Source of the DNA: a bacterium
GTDB taxonomy: Bacteria > JADJOY01
Reading direction: 5' to 3'
Assembly (NCBI GenBank): GCA_046331705.1
Contig: JAXLQJ010000017.1
Location: forward strand, 62,001 to 126,000
Length of the DNA stretch: 64,000 bases
Part shown: in pieces, positions 875-36,092 of the stretch
How the letters are laid out: every line of letters starts with the position of its first letter
Position numbering within the stretch: the stretch's first letter is position 1
The notes under the pieces: generated by a model
Database searches by the model: none
Told to the model about the DNA's origin: nothing
The model's input: only the letters and a program-made list of their open reading frames with translations
Made by a program: the position numbers and the translations under genes

Positions 875-2830
875 ATGAAACGCGTCGACGCCGCCGTGAT
901 CGCGCTGCTGGTCGGCGGGTCGCCGATCACCGTCCGGAGTGCGGTCGCCGCGACGATCGTCGTGACGAGCACCGCGGACGATCTCGCATCCGGTCCAAAC
1001 GGCGACTGCACGCTGCGTGAAGCCGTGCTCGCGGCCAACGGAGACGTCGCCGTGGATGCCTGCCCCGCCGGCAGCGGCGCGGACGTGATCGAGATCCCCG
1101 CAGGCACCTACACCCTCACGCTCGCGGGCGCGGGAGAGGACGGTGGGCTCACCGGCGATCTCGACGTCACAGGCGATCTCGTCATCGCCGGCGCGGGCCG
1201 CGCGAGCACGGTCATCCGCGCCGGCGTCCCTGGATGGGTCTCGGTCGACCGCGCGATCCACGTCCACGGCGTCGGCAGCGTCGAGATCCGCGACCTCACC
1301 GTTCGCGACAGCGGCGTGACCACCGGCACCGTCGGTCCTGGCGGCGGCATCCTCAACGACGGTGCATCGCTCACCGTGCGCCGCGCGGCGCTGGTTTCCA
1401 ACTTCTGCAGCGCGACGGTGTGGTGGGAGGCGTCGAGCGACGCGGGCGGTGGACTGGCGCAGACCGCCGGCTCGCTGTTGCTCACCGAATCCACCGTGGA
1501 TCAGAACCTCTGCACCCGCGGCGGCGGAATCGGCATCCTCGGCGGCACGTTCACGATCGAGCACTCGGTGTTGCGCCGGAACGTCGCGAGCCCCGCGGGC
1601 GGTGGCCTGCTGCTCGCCGCCGCGGTGACTGGCACGATCGATCACAGCGCCGTCGTGCAGAACGCGGCACGCGCGAGCGACGGTCCGGGCAGCTTCTGGC
1701 CCGGCGGCCAAGGTGGCGGCGTCTTCAACGCCGGCGGCCTCACGATCACCAACTCGACGGTGGCGGGCAACGCGGTGACCTCCGGCTATCCCGACACGAG
1801 CGCAGGAGACGGCATCTACAACGCCGGCACGCTCACCCTCGCCTACGCGACCGTTGCTCGCAACGGCTTCCCGACGCCCTTCGGCGGTGCACCCGCGTAC
1901 CGCGCCATCGAGAATCTCGGCGAAGCGGCAACGACGACGATGCACGGCACGCTGATCCACGAGCATTGCGTCGGCACGGGCTTCGTGAGCACCGGCTTCA
2001 ATCTCGAGCCGCACGCCACCTGCAATCTCGACGACTCGTCCGACTTGTCCAACGCAACCGCGGCCGTGGGCGCCACCCCACAGCCATGGCTCGGAACGTA
2101 CGTGCTGCCGCTGCTCGCGGGATCGGCGGCGCTGGAGAGCGCCGGCGACGATCCCACGTGCCCCGCGGACGACCAGGCGGGCACACCGCGTCCGCTCGAC
2201 GGCGACGGCACGGGCGACGCGAGCTGCGATCGCGGCGCGCTCGAGATGCCTTTCGGGCTCGACGGCGATGGCGACGGCTATCCGGACGAGCTCGACGATT
2301 GCCCCGGCATCGCCGACCCCAATCAGACCGACTACGACTTCGATGGCATCGGCGACGCCTGCGACCTCTGCCCGGACTTGGACGGTGACGGCTACGGGAA
2401 TCGAGCCGATGCGTCATGCCCGAAGATCGGCGTGGACTGCGACGACAGCCGCGCGTACGTGAATCCGGCGATGACGGAGATCCTGGACAACGGGCGGGAC
2501 GACGACTGCAACCCCGCGACCGCCGACTGCACCGACGCCGATGGGGACGGGTATCCCGCCACGAGCTGCCCGTACCCTCCCGTCGACTACGACTGCGACG
2601 ACGGCAACGCCGCGATTCATCCCGGTGCCACCGAGATGCCGCGCAACGGCGTCGACGACGACTGCAACCCGGCGACGCCGGGCGCGTGCACGCCCCAGCT
2701 TGCCGAGGCGGCGGTGGGTGGTGGCGCGGCGCGGGGGCCGTCGGCGACGCCACCGCTGGGCACGGTGCTCGTGGGTGCCATCGCGTTGCGCTCACTGCGG
2801 CGCGCGCGACGCGTGCGGCTCAGATCCTGA
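875..2830 (+). CDS. Secreted CSLREA-domain / beta-helix protein with choice-of-anchor-Q-like region, Asp/Cys-rich Ca/metal-binding repeats and C-terminal anchor
   Basis: ATG 875 after GAGGGAG; signal peptide; VTSTADD...DCTLREAVLAAN; GGGI repeats; DQAGTPRPLDGDG...CDRGALE; TSP3-like DGDGDGYPDELDDCP; two DCDD..P...E...NG.DDDCNPAT repeats; hydrophobic plus Arg-rich tail. Confidence 0.85.
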   Translation: MKRVDAAVIALLVGGSPITVRSAVAATIVVTSTADDLASGPNGDCTLREAVLAANGDVAVDACPAGSGADVIEIPAGTYTLTLAGAGEDGGLTGDLDVTGDLVIAGAGRASTVIRAGVPGWVSVDRAIHVHGVGSVEIRDLTVRDSGVTTGTVGPGGGILNDGASLTVRRAALVSNFCSATVWWEASSDAGGGLAQTAGSLLLTESTVDQNLCTRGGGIGILGGTFTIEHSVLRRNVASPAGGGLLLAAAVTGTIDHSAVVQNAARASDGPGSFWPGGQGGGVFNAGGLTITNSTVAGNAVTSGYPDTSAGDGIYNAGTLTLAYATVARNGFPTPFGGAPAYRAIENLGEAATTTMHGTLIHEHCVGTGFVSTGFNLEPHATCNLDDSSDLSNATAAVGATPQPWLGTYVLPLLAGSAALESAGDDPTCPADDQAGTPRPLDGDGTGDASCDRGALEMPFGLDGDGDGYPDELDDCPGIADPNQTDYDFDGIGDACDLCPDLDGDGYGNRADASCPKIGVDCDDSRAYVNPAMTEILDNGRDDDCNPATADCTDADGDGYPATSCPYPPVDYDCDDGNAAIHPGATEMPRNGVDDDCNPATPGACTPQLAEAAVGGGAARGPSATPPLGTVLVGAIALRSLRRARRVRLRS

Positions 2831-5800
2831 GCGCCACCCCTGGTGTGAGGAAGCAGAGCCACGACTCGACCACGGGGCGGCGGAAGATCTCGGTGACGGC
2901 ACGCGCGTAAAGCGCCATCTGGCCGCGATAGCGCTCGGCAGCGCCTGCAACCTCCGCCGCCGTCACGCGATCGGTCTTGTAGTCGAGCAGCAGGAACCCG
3001 CTTCCGTCCTCGACCTCGGCGAGCAGGTCGATCACGCCTTGCACGACGATACGATCATCCGCACCGGGCCGTCCCGCGATCGCGGGATGGACCTCGCCGG
3101 CGGGGATCCCGAGCGTGAACGGCAGCTCGCGGCGTAGCGCGTGCGGCCGCGCCGCGAGCCTGCAACCGAGATCGGAAGCGCCGAAGGAGACGATCGCGTC
3201 GAGGCCGAGCGCCGCTGCCTGCTCCTCCGTCAGCACCCGTCGCTCGACCAGCGCAGCGACCGCCGCGGCCGTCGCTGCTCGATCCGACCACACCGCGGGG
3301 TCGAGGTGCAGCAGCGCTGCGTGGGTGGCGATCCCCACGTCCACGCCGCCGCGCGCACCGCGCGACGCATCCAGGAAGCGCGGGCGCTCGGCCATCGCTT
3401 CGGCCGACCCGGCCCGTCGCGCCTCGCCGCGGGCGCCGCGGGCGCGCGCGGCCCCGCCGCGCGAGCGCTTCACCACCGGCCACTCGATGCGCGAGGCCGC
3501 CACTGCCGCGGCATCCTCGTCCTCGGGTGCGCCCGGCGCGAAGCGCGACTTGAGCTCGGTCACGCTCATCTTCGCGAATCGAGCCGCCACGGCGGCACGC
3601 GGATAGGTCCAGGCGAAGCGACGCGCGAGCCCTGCGCGCTCCGCCTCGTCCGCGTCGCTCGCGGCCTCGCCGAAGGCGCTCGGATCGAGCGCCGCCACGC
3701 GGGCCCAATCGATCGGTTCATCGCCGGTGGTGGACACGGAGGCGCTCGGGACGACGCGCGCGAGCTCGCTTCTCGACCAGCAGCGGACGGCCCAGCGCGA
3801 CGGCTCCTCGGATCGTGGCGCCACCCGCGCGCCCGCGACGCCGTCATCCGCGAGCAGCGCCCCGTCGGGATGGCGAGCCAGCGCCGGGGCGATCCAGTCG
3901 AGCGGACGGTTGGCGCTGGCGACCAAGGCCTCCGGAAGGCGGGCGCCCGCTCGGCCGGCGCTCGCCGCCCAGCGCGCGCGCTCGTTGGCCACCCCCCGCA
4001 CCGACCCGATCAAGATCAAGCGTTCGCGCGCACGCGTCAGCGCCACGTAGAGGATGCGCATCTCCTCGGCGCGCAGGCTCACCGCCCCGGCAGCGCGCAC
4101 CGCGTGATGCGCCAGCGACGCGAAGCGAGCCTTGAGCTCGCGATCGACGACACGCAGCCCGAGACCGAGATCGCGATGAAAGAGCACGTCGCCCTCGAGC
4201 TCCTGGTCGTTCCACTCGCTGCCCAAGCCACCCACGATCACGAACGGAAACTCGAGGCCCTTCGATTGGTGCACGGTGAGCACGCGCACCACGTCCTCGC
4301 CGGCACCGAGGGTCGCCGCGGCGCCCAGCTCCTCGTCGCGTTCGCGGAGCTTGGCGATGAACGCCAGGAAGCGGGCGAGCCCCTGGCGCGCGAAATGATC
4401 GAACTCGCGCGCGCGGTCGAAGAGGGCCAGCAGGTTGGCGCGGCGCTGCTCGCCACCCGGCATCGCCCCCGCGACGTCCACGAAGCGCGTCTCGCCGTAG
4501 ATCCGCCACACCAAGCGCGAGAGCGGGCCACGCCGCGCGGCGGTGCGCCATTCCTCGATCCGCGCGAGCAGCGTCGCGAGCTTGGCGCGGCTCGATTCGT
4601 CGAGCCCGCCGGCGCCCCCCGCCGCGGCGCGCGCCGCGTCGAGGAAATCGCCCGCGCGATCGGCGAGGCGCATGCGCGCCAGATCGGCGGCGCGAAACCC
4701 GCCGATCGGCGACAGCAGCACCGCCGCGAGCGGGATGTCCTGACGCGGGTTCTCGAGAGTCGCGAGCAGCGCCAGCAGGATCTCGATCTCGGTCGCCGCG
4801 AACCAACCGGTGCCGACGTCCGCGTGGACGGGCACGTGGAACGAGCGAAACACGCTCACGAACGAGGGCGCGCGATGGCGAATCGAGCGCAGCAGCACCA
4901 CCACGTCGCCGTAACGCGCGGGTCGGCTCGCCCACTCGCCGCCCTCGCGCTCCCAGACCTGGGCGGGCGCGACGTTCGCCGCGGCATCGCCCTCGACGAG
5001 GGCACGAGCACGCGCAGCGGCGATGACCGCCTCGCGCTCGGCGGCATTCGCCTCGGCGAGCCAGCGATCGAGCTCGCCGCGCGGCTCTTCCACCGCGCCG
5101 CCGACCTCGACGCCGCTCTCGGCCTCGTCGGCGGCGTCGAGGGGTGCGTCACCGCGCTCCACCAGGTGAAGCTCGACGGGGTGCTCCGCGTCGCGCGCGT
5201 CCGGGCTCCCATCGGCGGGATCCGGATAACCGGCGCCGTAGCGCAGCGCGGCCTCCTCGTCGTACGGGATCGCGCCGACGGCCTCGCTCATGACCTGCCG
5301 GAACAAGAAGTTCACCGCGGCGACGATCGCTCGGCGACTGCGGAAGTTGGCGCTCAGCGCGATCGCCCGCCCCGAGCGATCCCGACGGTAGGCCGCCAAG
5401 CGACTCAGGAAGAGGCCCGGATCGGTGTGTCGGAACCCGTAGATCGACTGCTTCACGTCGCCGACGACGAAGCGATTGCCGGCGACGGACGCATCCGCGC
5501 GCGACGCCTCGCGCGGGTCGCGCGACACCAACGACAGCAGCGCTTCCTGGACTCCGTTCACGTCCTGGTACTCGTCGACGAGCACCTCCTCGAAGCGCGC
5601 GCGCAGCTCGTGGGCGACGTCGCTGGGGCGGAACGCGGCGCGCTCCGGGTCCCACACCCCGAGGATCGCGAGCGCCGCGTGCTCGAGATCGTCGAAGTCG
5701 CCCGCCGCGCGGCGCTTCTTGAGCAGCCGGTAGCCACGCTCGAGCGATTCCACCAACGCGACGAGCGCGCGGGCATGCGGCACCAGCGTCGCCAGGTCCG

Positions 5801-22281: not shown

Positions 22282-23571
22282 TCACTGCACGACCTGGATC
22301 AGTCGGAAGTACGGCAGGAACATCGAGAGCGCCACGAACAGCACGACGACGCCCATGAAGCCGAGCAAGAGCGGCTCGACCAGCGTGCCCACGACCGCGG
22401 TCTGGTAGTCGACCTCGCGCTGGTGATGGCTCGCCACCGCCGCCATCGCCTCGGGCATGCGCCCCGACTCCTCGCCGACGGCGACCATGTCGAGCACCAG
22501 GCTGGGCAGGAAGCGAAACGGCAGGAAGCTCTCGTGGAGCGTCCGGCCGCGCTCGACGTTGCCGCGGATGTAGCGGAACGCGTCCTGGAACAGGATGTTC
22601 GGGATCGCCTCGCCCACCAGATCGAGGGTCTTGAGCAGCGGCACGCCGGCCTGGAGCAGGATCGACATCATCGTCGAGAACTGCACCGTGTAGATGTTGG
22701 TGAGGATGGGCCCGAAGATGGGCAGGTGCACCTCGATGCGGTGCAGGAGCGGCTTGAACCCGCCGCGCTTGCGCGCCTGCAAGAACACGAGATACGCGAC
22801 CAGCAGCGAGAGCACGATCCACGCCCAAGCATTCGTCACGGCGTTCGAGAAGCCGAACACGATCCGGGTGATCGTGGGCAGGTCGGCGCTGTTCATCTCG
22901 AGCTGATCCTTGAAGACCGGGATCACGAAGACCAGCAGCACCAGCACCACGGCAATGGCGAGGACGAACACGATGAGCGGATAGGTGACCGCCTTCGAGA
23001 GCGTGCGCTTGGTGTCGGACTCGCGATCGCGGTAATTGGCGAGGTAGTCGATCACCTTCACGAGCGAACCCGACTCCTCACCGGTGCGGATCACGCTGAC
23101 GATCATGTTGTTGAACCAGCGCGGGTGCTTGGCGAGCGCCGCCCACAGCTGGATTCCGCGCTCGACGTCGGTCATCACCTCCGTCAGCGAGGCGCGGAAC
23201 TCGGCGCTCTCGCTACGCGTGCTCAGGATCTGAAGCGCCCGCATCAACGGGATGCCCGCGCTCAAGAGCACCGAGAGCTGCCGCAGGAAGACGTTCACCA
23301 CCTCGGGATCGGGCTTGCGCGAGCTGCGCGCGAACGGATTCGACGGTGCGGCGTTGCTGCTCGCGGCACTCGGCGGCGGCGGTGGCGGCGGCGCGGCGGA
23401 GGAAGCGCCGCCGACTCCCGCACCCGGCAGCTCGTCGGCGGTCTTGGCCGCGAGGGTCTGGCGGATCGAGTCGGCAACCGATCCGCTCGCGGCTGCCGGC
23501 GCGGGCGCCGGTGCGGCAGCGGACGACGCCGCCGCCTTGCTGGACTTCGACTGCTTCTTGGTTTCGGCCAT
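22282..23571 (-). CDS. Type II secretion F / PilC family platform protein
   Basis: FLRQLSVLLSAGIPL, GEESGSL, AVTYP, FVIPVF, LPTITR, second GEESG, LVEP, SMFLP; Pro/Ala-rich N-terminal extension. Confidence 0.9.
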   Translation of the reverse strand: MAETKKQSKSSKAAASSAAAPAPAPAAASGSVADSIRQTLAAKTADELPGAGVGGASSAAPPPPPPPSAASSNAAPSNPFARSSRKPDPEVVNVFLRQLSVLLSAGIPLMRALQILSTRSESAEFRASLTEVMTDVERGIQLWAALAKHPRWFNNMIVSVIRTGEESGSLVKVIDYLANYRDRESDTKRTLSKAVTYPLIVFVLAIAVVLVLLVFVIPVFKDQLEMNSADLPTITRIVFGFSNAVTNAWAWIVLSLLVAYLVFLQARKRGGFKPLLHRIEVHLPIFGPILTNIYTVQFSTMMSILLQAGVPLLKTLDLVGEAIPNILFQDAFRYIRGNVERGRTLHESFLPFRFLPSLVLDMVAVGEESGRMPEAMAAVASHHQREVDYQTAVVGTLVEPLLLGFMGVVVLFVALSMFLPYFRLIQVVQ

Positions 23572-23666
23572 TGGGGGGACCCCTTCGAACGAGAGCGGGT
23601 TGGAGGAACTCCCCTCGACCATCGCGCCCAGCGCGCGGAGCGCCCGATCCGCGCGGCAGGCGATCG

Positions 23667-24902
23667 TCAGCCGAGGACGCGCACGTACTCCTCGATCGTC
23701 GTCAGCCCTTCACGGACCTTGGCGAGCCCCGAATCGCGCAGGGTTCGCAGTCCGTCGTCCAGGGCTTGCTTGCGAATCTGCTCTTCGGTGGCGCCCGACA
23801 TGATGAGGCTGCGCACCTTGTTGGTCACGTTGAAGATCTCGAAGATGCCGAGTCGGCCGCGATAGCCCGTGTTGAAGCACGCCTCGCAACCCGCGCCGCG
23901 CACCAGGTTGTAGCCGCTCATGTCCTTCGCCGAGAGGTGGAGCGCCTCGGCGGCGGCCTTCTTGTTGCGGATCGGCTCGGCGCAGTGGCTGCAGACCTTG
24001 CGCACCAACCGCTGCGCCAGCGAGCCCACCAGCGCGTTCGCGATCAGGAAGCGGTTGATGTTGAAGTTCGTGAGCGTGGTCACCGAGCCCACGGCCTCGT
24101 TGGCGTGCAGCGTCGAGAACACCAACATGCCGGTGAGCCCGGCGCGGATGGCGATCTTCGCCGTCTCCTCGTCGCGGATCTCGCCGACCAGGATCACGTT
24201 GGGGTCCTGACGCAAGATGGCGCGCAAGCCGTACACGAAGTCGAACGCGACCTTGTAGTTGACCTCGATCTGGTTCGCCCCGGGGATCACGTACTCGATC
24301 GGATCCTCGATGGTCATCACGTTGAGGCCGGCCTTGTCGATCTTGTTGATGCAGGAATAGAGCGTGGTGGTCTTGCCGCTGCCGACGGGGCCGGTGGCGA
24401 GCACGATCCCGTGCGGCTTGGCGATGAAGCCGTCGACGATCGCGACTTCCTCGGCGGCCATGCCGAGATCCTCGAGCGAGGTGAACAGGCGCCCGCCCTC
24501 GGCGAGCCGGATGCCCATGCGCTCGCCGAAGTTGGTGGGCACCGTCGCGATGCGCATGTCGTACTCGGACGCCTCGGTGGAGAACCGGTAGTGCCCGTCC
24601 TGCGGCAGGCGCCGCTCGGTGATGTCCATGTCCGCGAGGATCTTGATGCGCGAGATGATCTCGCGGCCGGTCGTGTGATCGACGCGCCCCACCTCGTAGA
24701 GGAAGCCATCGACGCGGTAGCGGATGTTGAAGCCGTCGCGTCGGGGCTCGATGTGGATGTCGGTGGCGCGCGAGCCCACCGCCTTCTCGATCAGCGTGGC
24801 GACGGTCTCGACGGCGGAGTTCGTGTTGATGGGCAGCGGCTCACCCGCGAAGCGCAGGTTGGCACCGCGCGAGGCCACCGAGCTGGAAGCGAGCTCCGCC
24901 AT
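23667..24902 (-). CDS. GspE/PilB family assembly ATPase (short, no N-terminal MshEN-like domain)
   Basis: ATDIHIEP, RLPQDG, GPVGSGKTTT, TIEDPIEY, LRQDPNVILVGEIRD, STLH, CxxC...CxxC. Confidence 0.9.
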   Translation of the reverse strand: MAELASSSVASRGANLRFAGEPLPINTNSAVETVATLIEKAVGSRATDIHIEPRRDGFNIRYRVDGFLYEVGRVDHTTGREIISRIKILADMDITERRLPQDGHYRFSTEASEYDMRIATVPTNFGERMGIRLAEGGRLFTSLEDLGMAAEEVAIVDGFIAKPHGIVLATGPVGSGKTTTLYSCINKIDKAGLNVMTIEDPIEYVIPGANQIEVNYKVAFDFVYGLRAILRQDPNVILVGEIRDEETAKIAIRAGLTGMLVFSTLHANEAVGSVTTLTNFNINRFLIANALVGSLAQRLVRKVCSHCAEPIRNKKAAAEALHLSAKDMSGYNLVRGAGCEACFNTGYRGRLGIFEIFNVTNKVRSLIMSGATEEQIRKQALDDGLRTLRDSGLAKVREGLTTIEEYVRVLG

Positions 24903-30892: not shown

Positions 30893-31776
30893 GCGGCATT
30901 CCTCGACGTCGTGCCGATCGTCGCGCCGCCAGCGCGCTGCTTCTGGACGCGACGCTGCGCCGAGAGTCCCTTGCGGCGGAGCAAGGGCTTCACGCGATCG
31001 GCGATCTGCGGAAACGCGTTCACGACCTTCGCGAGCGACGCCCGGCCGATCGGGATCAGCACCTCCATCGGACGCTCGTCGAGCGCGCGCAGGATCGCCT
31101 GCGCCACGTCCTCCACCGTCAGCACCCGATCGCCCGAGAACGTGAGCGCTGCCTCTTCGTAGTCGACCTGCAGGTCGAGCATGGGCGTCTGGACGGCGTC
31201 CGGGCACACGGTGGTCACGGCGACTCCGAAGCGCGCGAGCTCCTGCGAGACCGCGAGCGAGAACCCGCGCACGGCGAACTTCGACGCGCTGTAGAGGCAG
31301 AGCCCGGGCACCGGCGCGATCGCCGCCAACGACGCGATGTTGACGATGTGCCCCTCGCCCCTCGGCACCATCATGCGTGCCGCGGCGCGGGTGCCGAAGA
31401 TCACACCCTTGGTGTTGACGTCGATGTGCCGATCGACGTCGCTCGCCTCGGTCTCGTGGATGTAGCCCGGACGCAGATAGCCCGCCACGTTGAGCACCAC
31501 GTCGACGCTGCCGAGCTTCGCGACGGCGAGCTCCACGGCGCGCTCCCATTGCGCCGCATTGCGCACGTCGAGCGCCATGAGCATCACGCGATCGGGCTGC
31601 CACGCGTCCGCCTTGGCGGCCGCCTTGAGCTTCTTGAGCTCGAGATCCGTGGCGACCACTCGATGCCCGTGCGCGACGAGCACCCCCACCAGATGCCGCC
31701 CGATGCCGCTCGCGCACCCCGTCACCAGACACACCCGCGCGGGCTCGTTCCTCGCCCTGCTGGATCGCTTCGCCAT
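30865..31776 (-). CDS. SDR family oxidoreductase
   Basis: ATG 31776 after GAGGAG; TGCASGIG, NVAG, NIAS, YSASK. Confidence 0.9.
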   Translation of the reverse strand: MAKRSSRARNEPARVCLVTGCASGIGRHLVGVLVAHGHRVVATDLELKKLKAAAKADAWQPDRVMLMALDVRNAAQWERAVELAVAKLGSVDVVLNVAGYLRPGYIHETEASDVDRHIDVNTKGVIFGTRAAARMMVPRGEGHIVNIASLAAIAPVPGLCLYSASKFAVRGFSLAVSQELARFGVAVTTVCPDAVQTPMLDLQVDYEEAALTFSGDRVLTVEDVAQAILRALDERPMEVLIPIGRASLAKVVNAFPQIADRVKPLLRRKGLSAQRRVQKQRAGGATIGTTSRNAAQRRSTPRA

Positions 31777-31810
31777 CGCCCGCTCCTCGTTCGCCGGTTG
31801 GAGTCGCTGC

Positions 31811-31831
31811 GCCACGGTATGGCCACGGTAT
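31811..31831. promoter_or_regulatory. Direct repeat GCCACGGTAT x2 with 11-bp period
   Basis: Copies at 31811-31820 and 31822-31831 in the divergent SDR/DUF4139 intergenic region. Confidence 0.35.
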
Positions 31832-31887
31832 AGCTCGCGCACCGTACACGGACGTGCGATCATCGCGCCGCCTTCCGCGAGCCCAGC

Positions 31888-34230
31888 ATGCCAAAGCGCG
31901 CGCTTCTCGCCTCGCTCGCGACCGTCGTGCTTCTCGCGACGAACGCTCCCACGTCGCGAGCGGCGCAGCTGGTGCCGAGCGCGATCTCCGGCGTGGTGGT
32001 GCACCCCAACGGCGCCGTCGTCACGCGCTCCGGCACCGTCGATCTCGCCGCCGGCACCCAGACGCTGGTGTTCGCGGAGCTGCCCGCCGCGACGGCGAGC
32101 GACGCCCTGCGCGTGCGGCTCGGCGACGATCCGTCGCTGGCGGAGGTCCTCGGAGTCACCGTGGAGACGATCATCCGCAAGCCCGAGCGCGACGAGGTGT
32201 TCCGGGCCGCCGAGAAGGAGGTGTTCGAGCTCAGGGATCGCCTCGCCGCCGTCGACGTGCGACTCGACGATGCCCAAGGCACGCGCGACACGCTTCGCGG
32301 CTTGCCGATCGACGAGCCGACGATCCGCAAGCCGGAATCCGTGAAGCTCGAGCCCGCGGCGTGGATCGCAGCGTTCGCCCAGATCCGCAACGGCCTCGTC
32401 GACGCCGCGCGAGCGACGGCCGACCTCGAGCGCGATCGTCGCCACCTCCTCGACCGCCTGCGCGATGCCGAGGCGCGGCTCGTGGAGGTGGGCGCCATCC
32501 GCACCGCCAGCCACAAACGAGCCTCGCTCGACGTGCGGGCGAACCACGCCGCGCGCGTGACGCTCGAGCTCTCGTATTTCGTGCCAGGCGCCTCGTGGAC
32601 ACCCGCCTACACCGTCCGCGTGGACCGCGCGGACAGCGTGACGCTGCTGCGGCGTGCTCGCGTCGTGCAGCGCACCGGTGAGGACTGGAGCAAAGTGCCA
32701 CTCTCGTTGAGCACCACCGACCCGTCGTTTCGAGCGGGCCCCGAAGCGCTGCGCTCGTGGCGCATTCGCGAGCGGCCAGCGCCTCCCGAGATCGCGCGGC
32801 CCGCGTTCGCGAAGAGCGTCGCCAGCGGCGCCGACTTGCTGGATGCCGACTCGGGCAACTCGCTCACCGGTTTCTTCCAGCCACCCACGAAATACGTCGG
32901 CGAGAAGATCTCGCTCGACGTGAAGGACGCGCCGATTCGCGACGTGCTCTCGGAGATCGCGAGCCTCACCGGCACCAACCTGGTGCTGGCGGAGGACGTT
33001 CACGGGCGCGTGACCCTGCGGCTCACGGAGGTGCCCTGGGATCAAGTGTTGGAAGAGGTGTTGCGTTCCCGTGGCCTCGCGAAGGTGCGCGAAGGAAATC
33101 TGATCCGCGTTGCGACGCGCGAGTCGCTGGATCGCGAGCAGGAAGCACGGCTCCGCACCCAGGCGCGTTCGAGCAAGCTCGAGCCGGTGCTGCTCAAGAT
33201 CATCCCGGTCCAGTACGCCGTCGCCCGCGCGCTCCTGCCCCAGCTTCGCCGCGTCGCGAGCCACCGCGACGACGCGTCGATCGACGTGGACGACCGCACC
33301 AATTCGCTCATCGTCAAGGACACCGATCGGGCCATCGAGGTCATGACCGATCTCGTGCATTCCCTCGACACGCGCATCTACCCCGACGAGCCTCCGTTCT
33401 GGATGGTGCACGATCTGGCGCCAGCGCTCCTCGCCGACGAGCCATCCGAACGCGCACGCGGATGGCGCGAGCGATTCGACGCGGCGCTCGCCGGTCGCGA
33501 TGCCGGCGCACCGGCTCCAGCACCGCTCTTCCCCGCCGATGCGCCGGAACCGGAGGCGCCGCTCACCGCGCGCGATCGCCGCGTGCCGCAGTTCGTCTTC
33601 GGGCCGACCGCTCCCGTGAGCGTCCCGTCCGACGCACGCGCCCACGAGCTCGTTCTCGGCACCACCACGCTGACGGCGGAGCTCGACTACGAGGTGGCGC
33701 CGCTCGCTCGCGCGGACGCCATCCTCGCCGCGCGCGTGACTCCAACCGAGCAGCCATTCGTCTCCGGCCCCGCCGAGTCGTTCATCGCCGGCGATTACGC
33801 GGGGCGCACCACGTTGCCGGACGCCGTGAGCGGCGAGACCGTGCGGGTTGCCCTCGGCCCCGACCCGCGCCTCGTGGTGCGGCGCATCGAGCGCAAGAGC
33901 CAGGCGGACACCGGCTTCGCGAGCGCCCAGGTCACCGAGACCAGCGACGTCCGGATCGAGATCGAGAACCACGCCGGGACACCGGCTGCAGTGCACCTCG
34001 TCGACCGAGTCCCCTTCACGCTCGACACGCGGCTCGCCATCGACGTGAGCGGTCTCGAGCCGACGCCGCGCGACGACGGCCCGAGCGATCGCGCCCGCGG
34101 CCTGCTCGCCTGGGACCTGCCCGTGCCGTCGGGCGCGACGGCGCGCGCGAGCTATCGGCTCACGATCGAACGACCGCGCGACGGCGCGATCACGCTCACG
34201 CCACAGTCGCCGCGCGAGCCCGCGCCGTGA
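31888..34230 (+). CDS. Secreted DUF4140/DUF4139 (MuiA-like) protein with inserted PilQ-like secretin N0-N1 domains
   Basis: Signal peptide; ISGVVVHPNGAVVTR; coiled coil; ASWTPAY, QRTGEDWSKVPLSLST; insert YVGEKISLDVKDA...VPWDQVL...IIPVQYA...VDDRTNSLIVKD; C-terminal LGPDP...LLAWDL. Confidence 0.85.
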   Translation: MPKRALLASLATVVLLATNAPTSRAAQLVPSAISGVVVHPNGAVVTRSGTVDLAAGTQTLVFAELPAATASDALRVRLGDDPSLAEVLGVTVETIIRKPERDEVFRAAEKEVFELRDRLAAVDVRLDDAQGTRDTLRGLPIDEPTIRKPESVKLEPAAWIAAFAQIRNGLVDAARATADLERDRRHLLDRLRDAEARLVEVGAIRTASHKRASLDVRANHAARVTLELSYFVPGASWTPAYTVRVDRADSVTLLRRARVVQRTGEDWSKVPLSLSTTDPSFRAGPEALRSWRIRERPAPPEIARPAFAKSVASGADLLDADSGNSLTGFFQPPTKYVGEKISLDVKDAPIRDVLSEIASLTGTNLVLAEDVHGRVTLRLTEVPWDQVLEEVLRSRGLAKVREGNLIRVATRESLDREQEARLRTQARSSKLEPVLLKIIPVQYAVARALLPQLRRVASHRDDASIDVDDRTNSLIVKDTDRAIEVMTDLVHSLDTRIYPDEPPFWMVHDLAPALLADEPSERARGWRERFDAALAGRDAGAPAPAPLFPADAPEPEAPLTARDRRVPQFVFGPTAPVSVPSDARAHELVLGTTTLTAELDYEVAPLARADAILAARVTPTEQPFVSGPAESFIAGDYAGRTTLPDAVSGETVRVALGPDPRLVVRRIERKSQADTGFASAQVTETSDVRIEIENHAGTPAAVHLVDRVPFTLDTRLAIDVSGLEPTPRDDGPSDRARGLLAWDLPVPSGATARASYRLTIERPRDGAITLTPQSPREPAP

Positions 34231-35897
34231 GCGCCGCACCGTCCGTCCAGCGACTCGCCGTCGCGTTCGCGCTTGCCCTCGCCCCCGCGCCACGCGCGCT
34301 CGCCGCGCAGCTCGCGTCCCACGCCATCGAGGCCGTGACGGTGCTCGAGGATCGCGCGCTGGTGACACGTTCCGTCGCGACCGCCGTCGAGGCCGGCGCG
34401 AGCACGGTCGAGATCGGCGCGCTGGAGGCTGGGATCGATCCGCTCTCGATCGACGTCTCGAGCGGCGACCGCGAGGTGGCGATCGTCGCCGTCGACCTCG
34501 ATTCGGCCAGCCGCGAGCCGGACGGCGCGGCCAGCGACGAGGCCCGCGCCATCCGCGACGAGGCCGATCGCCTGCTGGAGCGGATCGAACGCCTCGACGC
34601 CGAGCGCAGCGCCCTCGACGACGCGAGCGCCGTGCTGGCACGCTACGAGACGCTCGTCGCGAGCGCGCTCGCCAACGCTGGCAGCGGTTCGGTCGCGATG
34701 GACGCGACGGCGTGGCAGCAGGCGACGCGCTTCCTGAGCGAGCAACGCCAGGCGCTCGCGGGCTCACGTCACCAGCTCGAACGCGACACGAGTGAGCTGC
34801 GCGACCAGTGGAGCCTGAAGCTGGCGGCGGCATTGGAGCGCGGCCGCGCGGCGAGCCGCGAGCACGGCACACGGATCCGCGTCGCCGTCGCCACCGACCG
34901 GGCGCGCACGGTGACGCTCGGGCTGCGCTACGCCGTCGGCGATGCCGGCTGGCGGCCGAGCTACGACGCGCGCGTCACGCCGAGTGGCGCGGTGACGCTG
35001 ACGCAGCGGGCGCTGGTGGCGCAGCGCTCGGGCGTCGATTGGGTGGACGTCGATCTCACGCTCGCGACCCGGCGCGCCGACCGGGACGTCCGGCTCCCGG
35101 CGCTGAGCGCTCTTCGCGCCGACTTCGCGGAACGCGACGAGCCCGAGCGACGGGCGGTCACCTCCACCTCCGAGGCAGTCGTCCCGGATGCGCAGGCGGA
35201 CCACATCCTGGACGCACCGCCCGCGGAGATCACGACGACCGCGCTCGCGGCTCCGTCGGCGCCGAGCGCCGCGGCGGCGCCGCTCGCCTTTCGTCTCGAT
35301 CGACGCGTGACGATTCCCGCGGACGGCTCGCCGCACTCGGTGGTGATCCGCGAGAGCCCGCTCGCGGGCGAGACGCGCCTCTACGCTGCACCCGAGCAGA
35401 GCCTGCTCGCGTACGCCCGTCTCGAGACCCGCAACCCGTTCGCCGAGTCGCTCCTCGACGGTCCGCTGCAGGTGGTGGGCCGCGCGGGTCAGGCGGCTCG
35501 CACCCGCATGCCCGTGCGAGCGCCGGGCGAGGATCTGGAGCTATTCCTCGGAGCCGACGACGCAGTGCGCATCACCCGCACCGAGATCGAGCGCGGCCAG
35601 ACCGTCGCGAACGCGTTGATCGGCGGACGCAAGCGGCTGCGATTCGCGTACCGCGTGAGCGTGCGAAACGTCGGGCGCGACCCGCGCGCCGTGACGATCG
35701 CCGAACGCATCCCGGTCTCCGAGCTCGACGAGATCGAGGTTGCGCTCGAGCCGACCGATCCCGCGACCACCCGCGCCAGCAAGGACGGCATTCTGGAATG
35801 GGATCTCGACCTTTCGCCGGGCGCCACGCGGTCCATCGAGCTGCGCTACACGGTGACGGTTCCCGGCGATTTCGACTGGGACGCGCTGCGTCCTTGA
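34227..35897 (+). CDS. Secreted DUF4140/DUF4139 (MuiA-like) protein
   Basis: GTG overlaps upstream stop; IEAVTVLEDRALVTR, AGWRPSYD, QRSGVDW..V.LTLAT, TIPADG, ERIPVS, GILEW. Confidence 0.85.
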   Translation: MSAAPSVQRLAVAFALALAPAPRALAAQLASHAIEAVTVLEDRALVTRSVATAVEAGASTVEIGALEAGIDPLSIDVSSGDREVAIVAVDLDSASREPDGAASDEARAIRDEADRLLERIERLDAERSALDDASAVLARYETLVASALANAGSGSVAMDATAWQQATRFLSEQRQALAGSRHQLERDTSELRDQWSLKLAAALERGRAASREHGTRIRVAVATDRARTVTLGLRYAVGDAGWRPSYDARVTPSGAVTLTQRALVAQRSGVDWVDVDLTLATRRADRDVRLPALSALRADFAERDEPERRAVTSTSEAVVPDAQADHILDAPPAEITTTALAAPSAPSAAAAPLAFRLDRRVTIPADGSPHSVVIRESPLAGETRLYAAPEQSLLAYARLETRNPFAESLLDGPLQVVGRAGQAARTRMPVRAPGEDLELFLGADDAVRITRTEIERGQTVANALIGGRKRLRFAYRVSVRNVGRDPRAVTIAERIPVSELDEIEVALEPTDPATTRASKDGILEWDLDLSPGATRSIELRYTVTVPGDFDWDALRP

Positions 35898-36092
35898 GCC
35901 GATCCGGCAACGCGTCTCGCCGCTCGCAACCCGCGACGCCGCCGGCGACCGCGCCCTGGCGCGGCTCGAGCGGGCCCGAGCCTCGGCGGACTCGCGGACG
36001 CGATCCATGGCGCGTCGCGTCGGGCGCATGCTAGCGTCGATGAGCGTTCACTCACCGCACGTGATCGAGCCCTCTTCGACGCGGAGCTCCGC

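Follow-up and report, generated by a model that had tools for sequence, protein, structure and literature searches.

A pair of overlapping genes, on the forward strand at positions 31888 to 35897 of a 64,000-nucleotide stretch of bacterial DNA (GenBank assembly GCA_046331705.1, contig JAXLQJ010000017.1, positions 62,001 to 126,000; hereafter the window, with a G+C content of about 70%), was found to encode two proteins of the MuiA family, the longer of which carries a block derived from the pilus secretin PilQ. This block corresponds to the periplasmic N0 and N1 domains of PilQ and lies inside the DUF4139 region of the longer protein, P0001; the shorter paralogue, P0002, has no such insert. 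That the architecture and its PilQ origin are real is regarded as close to certain. As judged from sequence comparison, this is a new architecture made from two known parts, and a genuine, traceable and very rare case of domain capture. The borrowed module is the one with which a secretin docks onto an inner-membrane lipoprotein; its normal job is well understood, and both the donor gene and the surface that has since changed can be identified. The insert turns a family that has no assigned function into the subject of a feasible binding experiment and in this sense provides a modest functional clue.

Domain architecture of the gene pair

By third-position G+C, two open reading frames (ORF1 and ORF2) are the only sensible genes of the region. 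Their features are as follows (residue numbers are those of P0001 unless stated; pLDDT, predicted local distance difference test; AF2, AlphaFold2).

31888..34230, + strand: ORF1, gene for the long MuiA-family protein P0001, 780 amino acids (open reading frame, Pfam, NCBIfam, AF2 model of mean pLDDT 76.2)
31888..31965, + strand: putative Sec signal peptide, residues 1 to about 26 (by eye: basic n-region, hydrophobic core, SRA-AQ; pLDDT below 50 at residues 3-23)
31993..32286, + strand: DUF4140 N-terminal beta-sandwich, residues 36-133 (PF13600, 53.1 bits; model strands 32-95)
32194..32496, + strand: long alpha-helical hairpin, helices 103-137 and 156-203 (AF2 model; also in P0002)
32512..32733, + strand: first part of DUF4139, strands 209-275 (PF13598 starts at residue 226; model; 80% identity to P0004, the orthologue described below)
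32734..32874, + strand: low-confidence linker upstream of the insert, residues 283-329 (pLDDT below 50 at 283-303 and 313-337; residues 301-329 are 28% identical to P0004)
32875..33117, + strand: PilQ-derived pre-N0 stretch and N0 (STN), residues 330-410 (Pfam GspD_N0, STN)
33118..33186, + strand: helix connecting N0 and N1, residues 411-433 (model helix 411-429; 74% identity to the genome's own PilQ)
33187..33375, + strand: N1 (Secretin_N), residues 434-496 (PF03958, 37.8 bits; ends at the exact point where PilQ enters its barrel domain)
33376..33468, + strand: conserved motif and helix following the insert, from residue 497 to about 527 (part of the long DUF4139 subfamily itself; residues 498-513 identical in P0004)
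33643..34176, + strand: second part of DUF4139, beta-sandwiches, residues 586-763 (PF13598 to residue 763; model; 72% identity to P0004)
34227..34230, + strand: GTGA overlap, the GTG start of gene 2 at 34227 and the TGA stop of gene 1 at 34228-34230 (sequence)
34227..35897, + strand: ORF2, gene for the short MuiA-family paralogue P0002, 556 amino acids (TIGR02231, 285.4 bits; model pLDDT 80.2; low-confidence linker 298-349; insert-free)

Five Pfam matches were obtained in P0001, each above its own gathering cut-off. Two are those of the host protein, namely DUF4140 (PF13600; residues 36-133, 53.1 bits against a cut-off of 27) and DUF4139 (PF13598; 142.6 bits against 31.8), the latter aligned as a single stretch from residue 226 to 763 that spans the insert and covers profile positions 1-204 of 205. 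The remaining three fall within the insert: GspD_N0 (PF21305; residues 343-408, 31.8 bits, cut-off 27), STN (PF07660; residues 365-408, 37.0 bits, cut-off 28.4) and Secretin_N (PF03958; residues 437-496, 37.8 bits, cut-off 28.2). The MuiA-family model TIGR02231 of NCBIfam matches P0001 at 192.3 bits (cut-off 112.6), and the scores of P0002 for TIGR02231, PF13600 and PF13598 (285.4, 50.3 and 166.7) are also above cut-off. Both proteins are hence MuiA-family members by all three curated cut-offs, as had been claimed for a tandem DUF4140/DUF4139 pair in the original prediction, which was made from the sequence alone.

The PilQ model TIGR02515 aligns with residues 338-496 of P0001 over positions 1-168 of 428 only (139.5 bits, E 1.5e-40), which is under the family cut-off of 284.35, and the score of the insert on the GspD model is lower still (69.4 bits). 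No match to the secretin barrel (PF00263) was found in P0001 at E<=1. P0001 has N0 and N1 and lacks the C-terminal barrel and gate, and is not a secretin. The similarity to PilQ was tested here by profile models and not by the motif strings quoted in the original prediction; the Pfam domains and TIGR02515 agree on its central claim of a PilQ N0-N1 insert. Its placing of the insert was accurate (the stretch beginning KYVGEK starts at residue 335, nucleotide 32890, and the module ends at about nucleotide 33375), as was its description of a DUF4139 sequence that resumes beyond a missing barrel and of a coupled second paralogue with DUF4140 and DUF4139 only, overlapping the first gene by GTGA. The two-gene unit is strongly supported as genuine, and so is the view that P0001 and P0002 are MuiA-family proteins of ancient divergence. 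Signal-like N-termini, read by eye in both proteins and in their orthologues, fit a periplasmic location.

The AF2 model of P0001 (mean pLDDT 76.2, predicted template modelling score 0.51) runs from a beta-sandwich through a two-helix hairpin (35 and 48 residues) and a beta-domain to a low-confidence segment (283-337), then to N0, helix and N1, which are well predicted (341-493), and finally through a second low-confidence segment containing one helix (497-566) to the remaining beta-sandwiches. The insert thus stands out as a block of pLDDT about 71-93 with segments below 50 on both sides. P0002 is predicted to have the same plan with a plain disordered linker (298-349) in place of the insert, and in both models the domain order of the MuiA family, a beta-sandwich, a hairpin and a beta-domain split by a variable linker, can be recognised. 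Foldseek searches with the P0001 model returned secretin N-domains (best 6w6m_A, E 1.5e-8; 4av2_A, 3e-7). For the DUF4139 core, Foldseek and a wide VIA-align search with the P0002 model gave no convincing solved relative: a ribophorin-type match (6s7o_E; E 9.7e-4, probability 0.51, template modelling score 0.12) and Foldseek rows for a mu-homology domain (E about 1e-2) were marginal, and the VIA-align results were filled with generic coiled-coil hairpins over residues 94-214, from which no fold was assigned.

Evidence against an assembly artefact

The genome is a draft of 118 contigs, and a chimera of pilQ with a DUF4139 gene, or an error of gene calling, could give rise to a protein of this kind. 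The probability of this is taken to be negligible. The 4-kb stretch is present in 20 public sequencing runs from 12 studies, mostly of activated sludge, and contigs from four runs of four studies span both junctions: one contig covers 31888-34120 in run X1 (record 1), one covers 32481-34137 in run X4 (record 10), and in runs X5 (records 18 and 19) and X8 (records 24 and 25) there is one contig across each junction. These junction-spanning pieces have at most one differing letter each and no insertions or deletions are listed. One of the four runs may be the source sample, and the artefact is refuted unless all four share one error. In addition, the genome's own pilQ lies on another contig (C11) in the order pilO-pilP-pilQ, and the insert is only 63.3% identical to its product over 166 amino acids and 68% identical in DNA, which is too divergent for a k-mer assembler to have merged them. 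The reading frame of P0001 is unbroken, with a G+C of 0.87 at third codon positions, and an orthologue from an independent assembly, 67% identical, has the same architecture. The architecture is not an assembly chimera, and the check on the junctions that accompanied the original prediction has come out in its favour. Strain variants in the four runs comprised two in gene 1, both synonymous, and 8 synonymous and 8 non-synonymous ones in gene 2, numbers too small to be given any weight; the insert itself had no listed variant.

Origin of the insert from the PilQ of its own lineage

Homology to PilQ begins in the pre-N0 stretch and ends at the last residues of N1, beyond which PilQ proceeds into the barrel and P0001 diverges. 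A tree was built from 24 N0-N1 modules, namely the two known inserts, seven PilQ of family f1 and 15 others picked from the search matches. The two inserts form a clade (support 100/98) that is sister to the clade of family f1 PilQ (92/86), and the inserts and these PilQ together are set apart from all other rows at 100/100. Branches leading to the PilQ tips are short (0.005-0.05) by comparison with those of the insert lineage (a stem of 0.25 plus about 0.18-0.20). Between insert and PilQ, non-synonymous divergence (dN) is 0.30-0.35 and synonymous divergence (dS) is 0.8-1.3; among the PilQ genes the corresponding values are 0.013-0.05 and 0.7-1.25. The amino acid sequence of the insert has thus evolved 6-20 times as fast as that of PilQ at similar dS, mostly in helix alpha1 of N0, with an overall dN/dS against PilQ of 0.25-0.44. 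The placement in the tree, together with a dS similar to that between PilQ genes, strongly supports the view that the insert is a cassette copied from a pilQ of its own lineage at around the time of the family radiation, and that it then evolved faster. According to precomputed Pfam lists, the PilQ of family f1 (P0005-P0008, P0267) are without the AMIN domain that most other PilQ matches carry.

Retention and remodelling of the insert

The orthologue mentioned above, P0004 (777 amino acids, from another assembly), is 67% identical to P0001 from end to end. Its insert aligns with that of P0001 without a gap at 74.4% identity, a value comparable to those of the two DUF4139 parts (80% and 72%) and above that of DUF4140 (60%), and the linker immediately upstream has fallen to 28%. 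The short P0002 also has an orthologue, P0255 (67% identity). P0255 and P0004 share their contig figures (2 contigs, the longest 6812), which suggests that their genes lie on one contig. Comparison of the two inserts strongly supports the conclusion that at least two species-level lineages have retained the module intact, with the surface of its N0 domain remodelled.

This remodelling is uneven. N0 (residues 340-410) is 46% identical to the PilQ N0 of the same genome in P0001 and 54% in P0004, against 74% and 71% for N1. Among the N0 positions that are invariant in the seven PilQ, 17 have been changed to one and the same residue in the two inserts, and at a further 12 both inserts differ from PilQ. 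The most altered element is helix alpha1 (350-361), with 8 of its 12 residues changed, whereas the first strand is nearly unaltered, 3 of its 4 residues being kept. Strand 1 and helix 1 taken together have 11 of 21 residues changed in both inserts compared with 33 of 145 elsewhere (Fisher p 0.007, a post hoc comparison of residues that are not independent). With the Neisseria PilP contact located in this region, the pattern suggests that the backbone contact element of N0 was kept and the adjoining surface remodelled.

Rarity of the architecture

A HMMER search of 1.84 billion representative proteins gave a single end-to-end match to P0001, which was P0004. The next match was a PilQ at 240 bits, and by rank 150 the score had dropped to 131 bits. 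No joining of DUF4139 to N0 or N1 was seen among 12 odd-looking matches that were scanned, although a very divergent fusion of less than 131 bits in total could be missed. The occurrence count called for by the original prediction therefore stands at one further protein. With only the insert as query, a word-based search returned 84 proteins at E<=1e-8, of which 80 have the Secretin barrel, two have the present architecture (P0001 itself and P0004) and two are other non-secretin STN proteins. The N0-N1-in-DUF4139 form is accordingly known from one cluster only.

A possible docking function

The partner of the N0 domain in pilus secretins has been described in Neisseria meningitidis, where the C-domain of PilP binds N0 of PilQ, with the largest nuclear magnetic resonance shifts around the first helix and strand of N0 and a contact made by edge-on strand pairing (PMC3441751). 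A similar complex is formed between the HR domain of GspC and N0 of GspD in type II secretion (PMC3169554). The PilP encoded in the present genome weakly matches the GspC model. When a complex of the insert (residues 330-500) with this PilP (88-183) was predicted, the score was 0.56, against 0.00 for the best of three controls; the runs agreed in at least 98% of contacts and the pLDDT of the partner was at least 83. Among solved complexes, 116 of 157 reached the mark applied to such scores, as against 2 of 215 mismatched pairs; the passing scores at or below 0.60 comprised 18 of the 157 solved complexes and both of the mismatches. The result is rated as weak support. Complexes of this kind have already been solved, and the pass may for that reason reflect memory of those structures; it demonstrates likeness and not binding.

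The explanation favoured here, to which a probability of about 0.4 is given as a whole, is that the insert is a docking module of a MuiA-type pair and is aimed at a PilP-like partner. After export to the periplasm, P0001 would form a scaffold of beta-sandwiches and a helical hairpin of about 50 residues and would act together with its short paralogue P0002. The N0-N1 module would be held out on two flexible tethers and might dock through N0, with altered affinity, onto PilP or another PilP/GspC-like domain. Docking could then bring the pair to the pilus assembly platform, or allow it to compete with PilQ there, and pilus assembly would be modulated as a result. Export, joint action and docking via N0 are the inferred steps. 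The joint action of P0001 and P0002, possibly as a heteromer, is plausible given the conserved pair, a second tandem pair and the two-unit fusions described below, though tandem pairs were seen in only two genomes. The docking step itself is put forward tentatively, as somewhat short of an even chance.

Several observations weigh against this explanation. The stretch to which PilP binding was mapped in Neisseria is the one where the insert differs most from PilQ, and the specificity of the insert may have shifted away from PilP. The score of the predicted complex lies in the weak band and is biased by the solved homologues. No pilus gene is linked to the pair, pilO, pilP and pilQ being on another contig, and the genes for GspE- and GspF-like proteins at 22282-24902 are 7 kb away on the opposite strand beyond five unrelated genes. 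Searches of the five other genomes of the phylum (completeness 74-100%), all of which have complete or partial pilQ-type N0-N1, did not reveal the pair, which is therefore dispensable for pili. By linkage and co-occurrence with pil genes the pair does not count as a component of the type IVa pilus. Docking to PilP, one of three functions suggested in the original prediction, thus gains something from the predicted complex and loses something to the altered binding surface. The second, a secretin decoy, is not favoured in a simple form that kept its specificity, since the part of N0 mapped to PilP binding in Neisseria is the most altered one.

A different reading of the same changes is that N0 was re-surfaced for a partner other than PilP, or that the module serves mainly for oligomerisation, as a ring-building device, or for tethering, without any link to pili; the short paralogue, another HR-like or FecR-like periplasmic domain and the module itself are candidate partners. 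The divergence of N0 (46-54% identity to PilQ N0, compared with 71-74% for N1), the alteration of 8 of 12 residues in helix alpha1, the excess of dN at similar dS and the 17 changes common to both orthologues, which have accordingly been fixed and then conserved, are all in keeping with such a shift. There is also precedent for secretin N-domains in other proteins, in the form of TPR with four STN, four STN alone, N0 with FecR_C, three STN with FGE-sulfatase and BlaR1-type peptidase with STN, as well as a stand-alone N0-N1 protein of 182 amino acids in the same genome. This reading is, on the other hand, at odds with the retention of 3 of 4 residues in the first strand, which makes the edge-on contact in PilP and GspC complexes, and with the PilP model having reached the mark, if weakly; no alternative partner was identified. 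It is considered somewhat unlikely, and it ranks behind docking to a PilP-like partner and ahead of the idea that the module is a tolerated passenger, a self-folding and functionless unit that persists in a permissive disordered linker because its removal is not favoured. The linker is indeed disordered and highly variable across the family and takes up other domains (of 31 long members scanned, 8 have a CarboxypepD_reg-like one there), the combination of domains in P0001 is very rare and the amino acid constraint on the insert is relaxed relative to PilQ. A passenger would nevertheless not be expected to have remained 74% identical without an insertion or deletion, like the host domains, while the neighbouring linker fell to 28%, nor to have a dN/dS against PilQ that is still 0.25-0.44, a hydrophobic core with all of its secondary-structure elements confidently predicted, and no listed variant in four runs. 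It is accordingly held to be improbable.

The remaining suggestion of the original prediction was a new conduit, in which the pair would oligomerise into a periplasmic ring or tube, built on N0-N1 rings, that crosses the envelope or replaces a secretin. N1 is a ring-building fold in secretins. The helical hairpin loosely recalls periplasmic adaptor proteins, although the resemblance is not significant (Foldseek gave MacA, 5nik_D, a probability of only 0.14). Neither model has a membrane segment past the signal-like N-terminus, the barrel is absent, and the unit includes no gene for an ATPase, platform or pilin, nor are pilus or secretion genes linked to it. A conduit is therefore unsupported and very improbable. 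Three points are absent from the original prediction: the PilQ of the lineage as the source of the module, the status of the pair as accessory cargo at a variable genomic position, and the repeated insertion of domains into the DUF4139 linker.

Relationship to the MuiA family and to other proteins

The DUF4139/MuiA family is large, with 16,288 representatives matching at E<=0.001. Among the papers listed for DUF4139, DUF4140, TIGR02231, PF13598 and PF13600, none was apparent as a study of the mechanism of the family or of the N0-N1 architecture. Its name-giving member, the mucoidy inhibitor MuiA of Pseudomonas aeruginosa, presumably suppresses alginate overproduction and belongs to the envelope-stress regulon. 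In P. aeruginosa, constitutive activation of the envelope-stress sigma factor that controls MuiA is reported to inhibit swarming (PMC10418997).

A tree was built with 45 rows, selected out of the more than 250 matches at hand. P0001 and P0004 belong in it to a clade of 16 proteins with long linkers (support 97), and P0002 and P0255 to one of short proteins (support 95). The tandem long and short proteins (723 and 549 amino acids) of an unrelated genome, G057, are split between the same two clades. In two further proteins, P0112 (1186 amino acids) and P0125 (1146 amino acids), there are two complete DUF4140-DUF4139 units per chain; the first halves group together, as do the second halves, and all four form one clade. 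The stretch after the insert in P0001 shows a loose match to a motif in the linker of other members of the long subfamily. Of the 31 other long members scanned, 8 (P0137, P0153, P0157, P0182, P0195, P0225, P0234 and P0242) have a CarboxypepD_reg-like domain at this linker position (about residues 308-427), which makes this linker, on the domain matches, a recurrent site of domain insertion. In the Atlas, a cluster of the CarboxypepD_reg type has 110 members, with Bacteroidota as the commonest phylum, and another of 292 members has a TonB-receptor Plug on 78% of them; a feature search with the two family accessions excluded returned only unnamed clusters at 0.75-0.78, below a usable lead.

The likeness of the insert to PilQ (TIGR02515; structures 4AV2 and 4AR0 from N. 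meningitidis and 6W6M from V. cholerae) extends over the pre-N0 stretch, N0, the linker helix and N1 and includes the secretin N-domain fold. Unlike PilQ, it has no barrel, gate or upstream beta-domain, it is internal to another protein, helix alpha1 of its N0 is remodelled and its gene lies outside a pil cluster. P0001 and P0002 share with the MuiA family its domain order, the disordered linker that splits the beta-domain and scores above the cut-offs, but typical members have about 520-600 amino acids and no foreign domain, and the present pair is drawn from two old subfamilies. The long DUF4139 proteins with CarboxypepD_reg resemble P0001 in having a foreign domain nested between the DUF4139 parts; that domain is of another fold and another source, and such proteins are common, whereas the N0-N1 form is confined to its one cluster. 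GspD has the same N0 fold and the same kind of partner in GspC-HR as PilQ has in PilP (PMC3169554, PMC3441751), but the match of the insert to the GspD model is weaker (69.4 against 139.5 bits for PilQ), and the insert derives from PilQ. Non-secretin proteins with STN or N0 use secretin N-domains without a barrel, as P0001 does; theirs are free-standing or terminal, in contrast to the nested module of P0001 with its source traceable to the resident pilQ. Secretin N-domains can thus be reused outside secretins. Six such non-secretin proteins (P0107, P0114, P0169, P0197, P0330 and P0344) were noted, with 1-5 STN or N0 domains accompanied by TPR, FecR_C, FGE-sulfatase or BlaR1-type peptidase domains.

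A more speculative generalisation, which is thought improbable, is that long-subfamily MuiA/DUF4139 proteins might be general periplasmic display scaffolds. They would repeatedly take up, within a single linker, those N-terminal modules of outer-membrane machines that face the periplasm, as mimics that plug into inner-membrane partners (PilP/GspC-like or TonB-like) and throttle or re-route these machines under envelope stress. PilQ N0-N1 in P0001 would be one example, and the CarboxypepD_reg-like and possibly Plug-like modules in Bacteroidota, which presumably correspond to N-terminal modules of SusC-type transporters, would be others. If correct, this would give the whole family a mechanism and could explain the motility effect reported for the MuiA regulon. 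The direct reach of the present case is limited, as it occurs in one small uncultured sludge-dwelling phylum in which the pair is dispensable.

Genomic setting

The collection examined consists of six genomes of the phylum (5.5-8.4 Mb, one family, two genera), including that of the window (G000). Searches with either protein and with the family model did not detect the pair in the other five (G001-G005); DUF4139 matches below cut-off in four of them (20-26 bits) were assigned to another family, with an orthologue of 81% identity on contig C10 of G000 itself. The gene order around the pair is purC, a methyltransferase gene, a short-chain dehydrogenase gene, the pair and the gene for a 661-amino-acid lipoprotein, and it is conserved in the relatives (window positions 31741-36092 were compared with loci L032-L035). 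The gap between dehydrogenase and lipoprotein genes is empty in G002 and G003 (182-230 bp). In G004 it is occupied by a gene whose product looks, by eye, like a radical-SAM enzyme, and in G005 by one whose product, again by eye, looks like a cupin-type protein. As the pair is present here and the same spot is empty or otherwise filled in relatives, it is accessory cargo in a variable genomic spot.

No remnant of the pair was detected in the syntenic gap of the relatives (tblastn at E<=10, nothing above 23 bits), and no convincing direct or inverted repeat or trace of a mobile element flanks it. No promoter-like site was found, and one terminator-like site, at chance level, lies inside gene 2. 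The downstream lipoprotein gene was rejected as a member of the unit, its product being conserved at 78-90% identity in four relatives that are without the pair. The orthologue of this lipoprotein in G003 (L030/L035, G003:C4 about 356999-358937) matches as two segments that are not in the same reading frame (query 12-367 and 365-661), possibly through a frameshift or an assembly error.

Elsewhere in the window, at 22282-24902 on the minus strand, a GspE/PilB-like ATPase of 411 amino acids, in which the N-terminal third of the models is absent (GspE positions 111-485), is followed by a GspF/PilC-like platform protein of 446 amino acids. Both are below equivalog cut-offs, and there is no adjacent pilin or secretin gene. 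The stand-alone N0-N1 protein of the same genome is encoded at L003 (G000:C35:50949-54665; ORF 1486-2034, minus strand). Its 182 amino acids comprise a signal-like N-terminus and N0-N1 (TIGR02515 positions 2-162, 89 bits), and its gene is directly downstream of ORF 2218-3579 (minus strand), which encodes a signal-bearing protein of 453 amino acids with an aromatic tail like that of outer-membrane proteins and no family match. Small open frames with N0-N1 only are also present in G001-G005.

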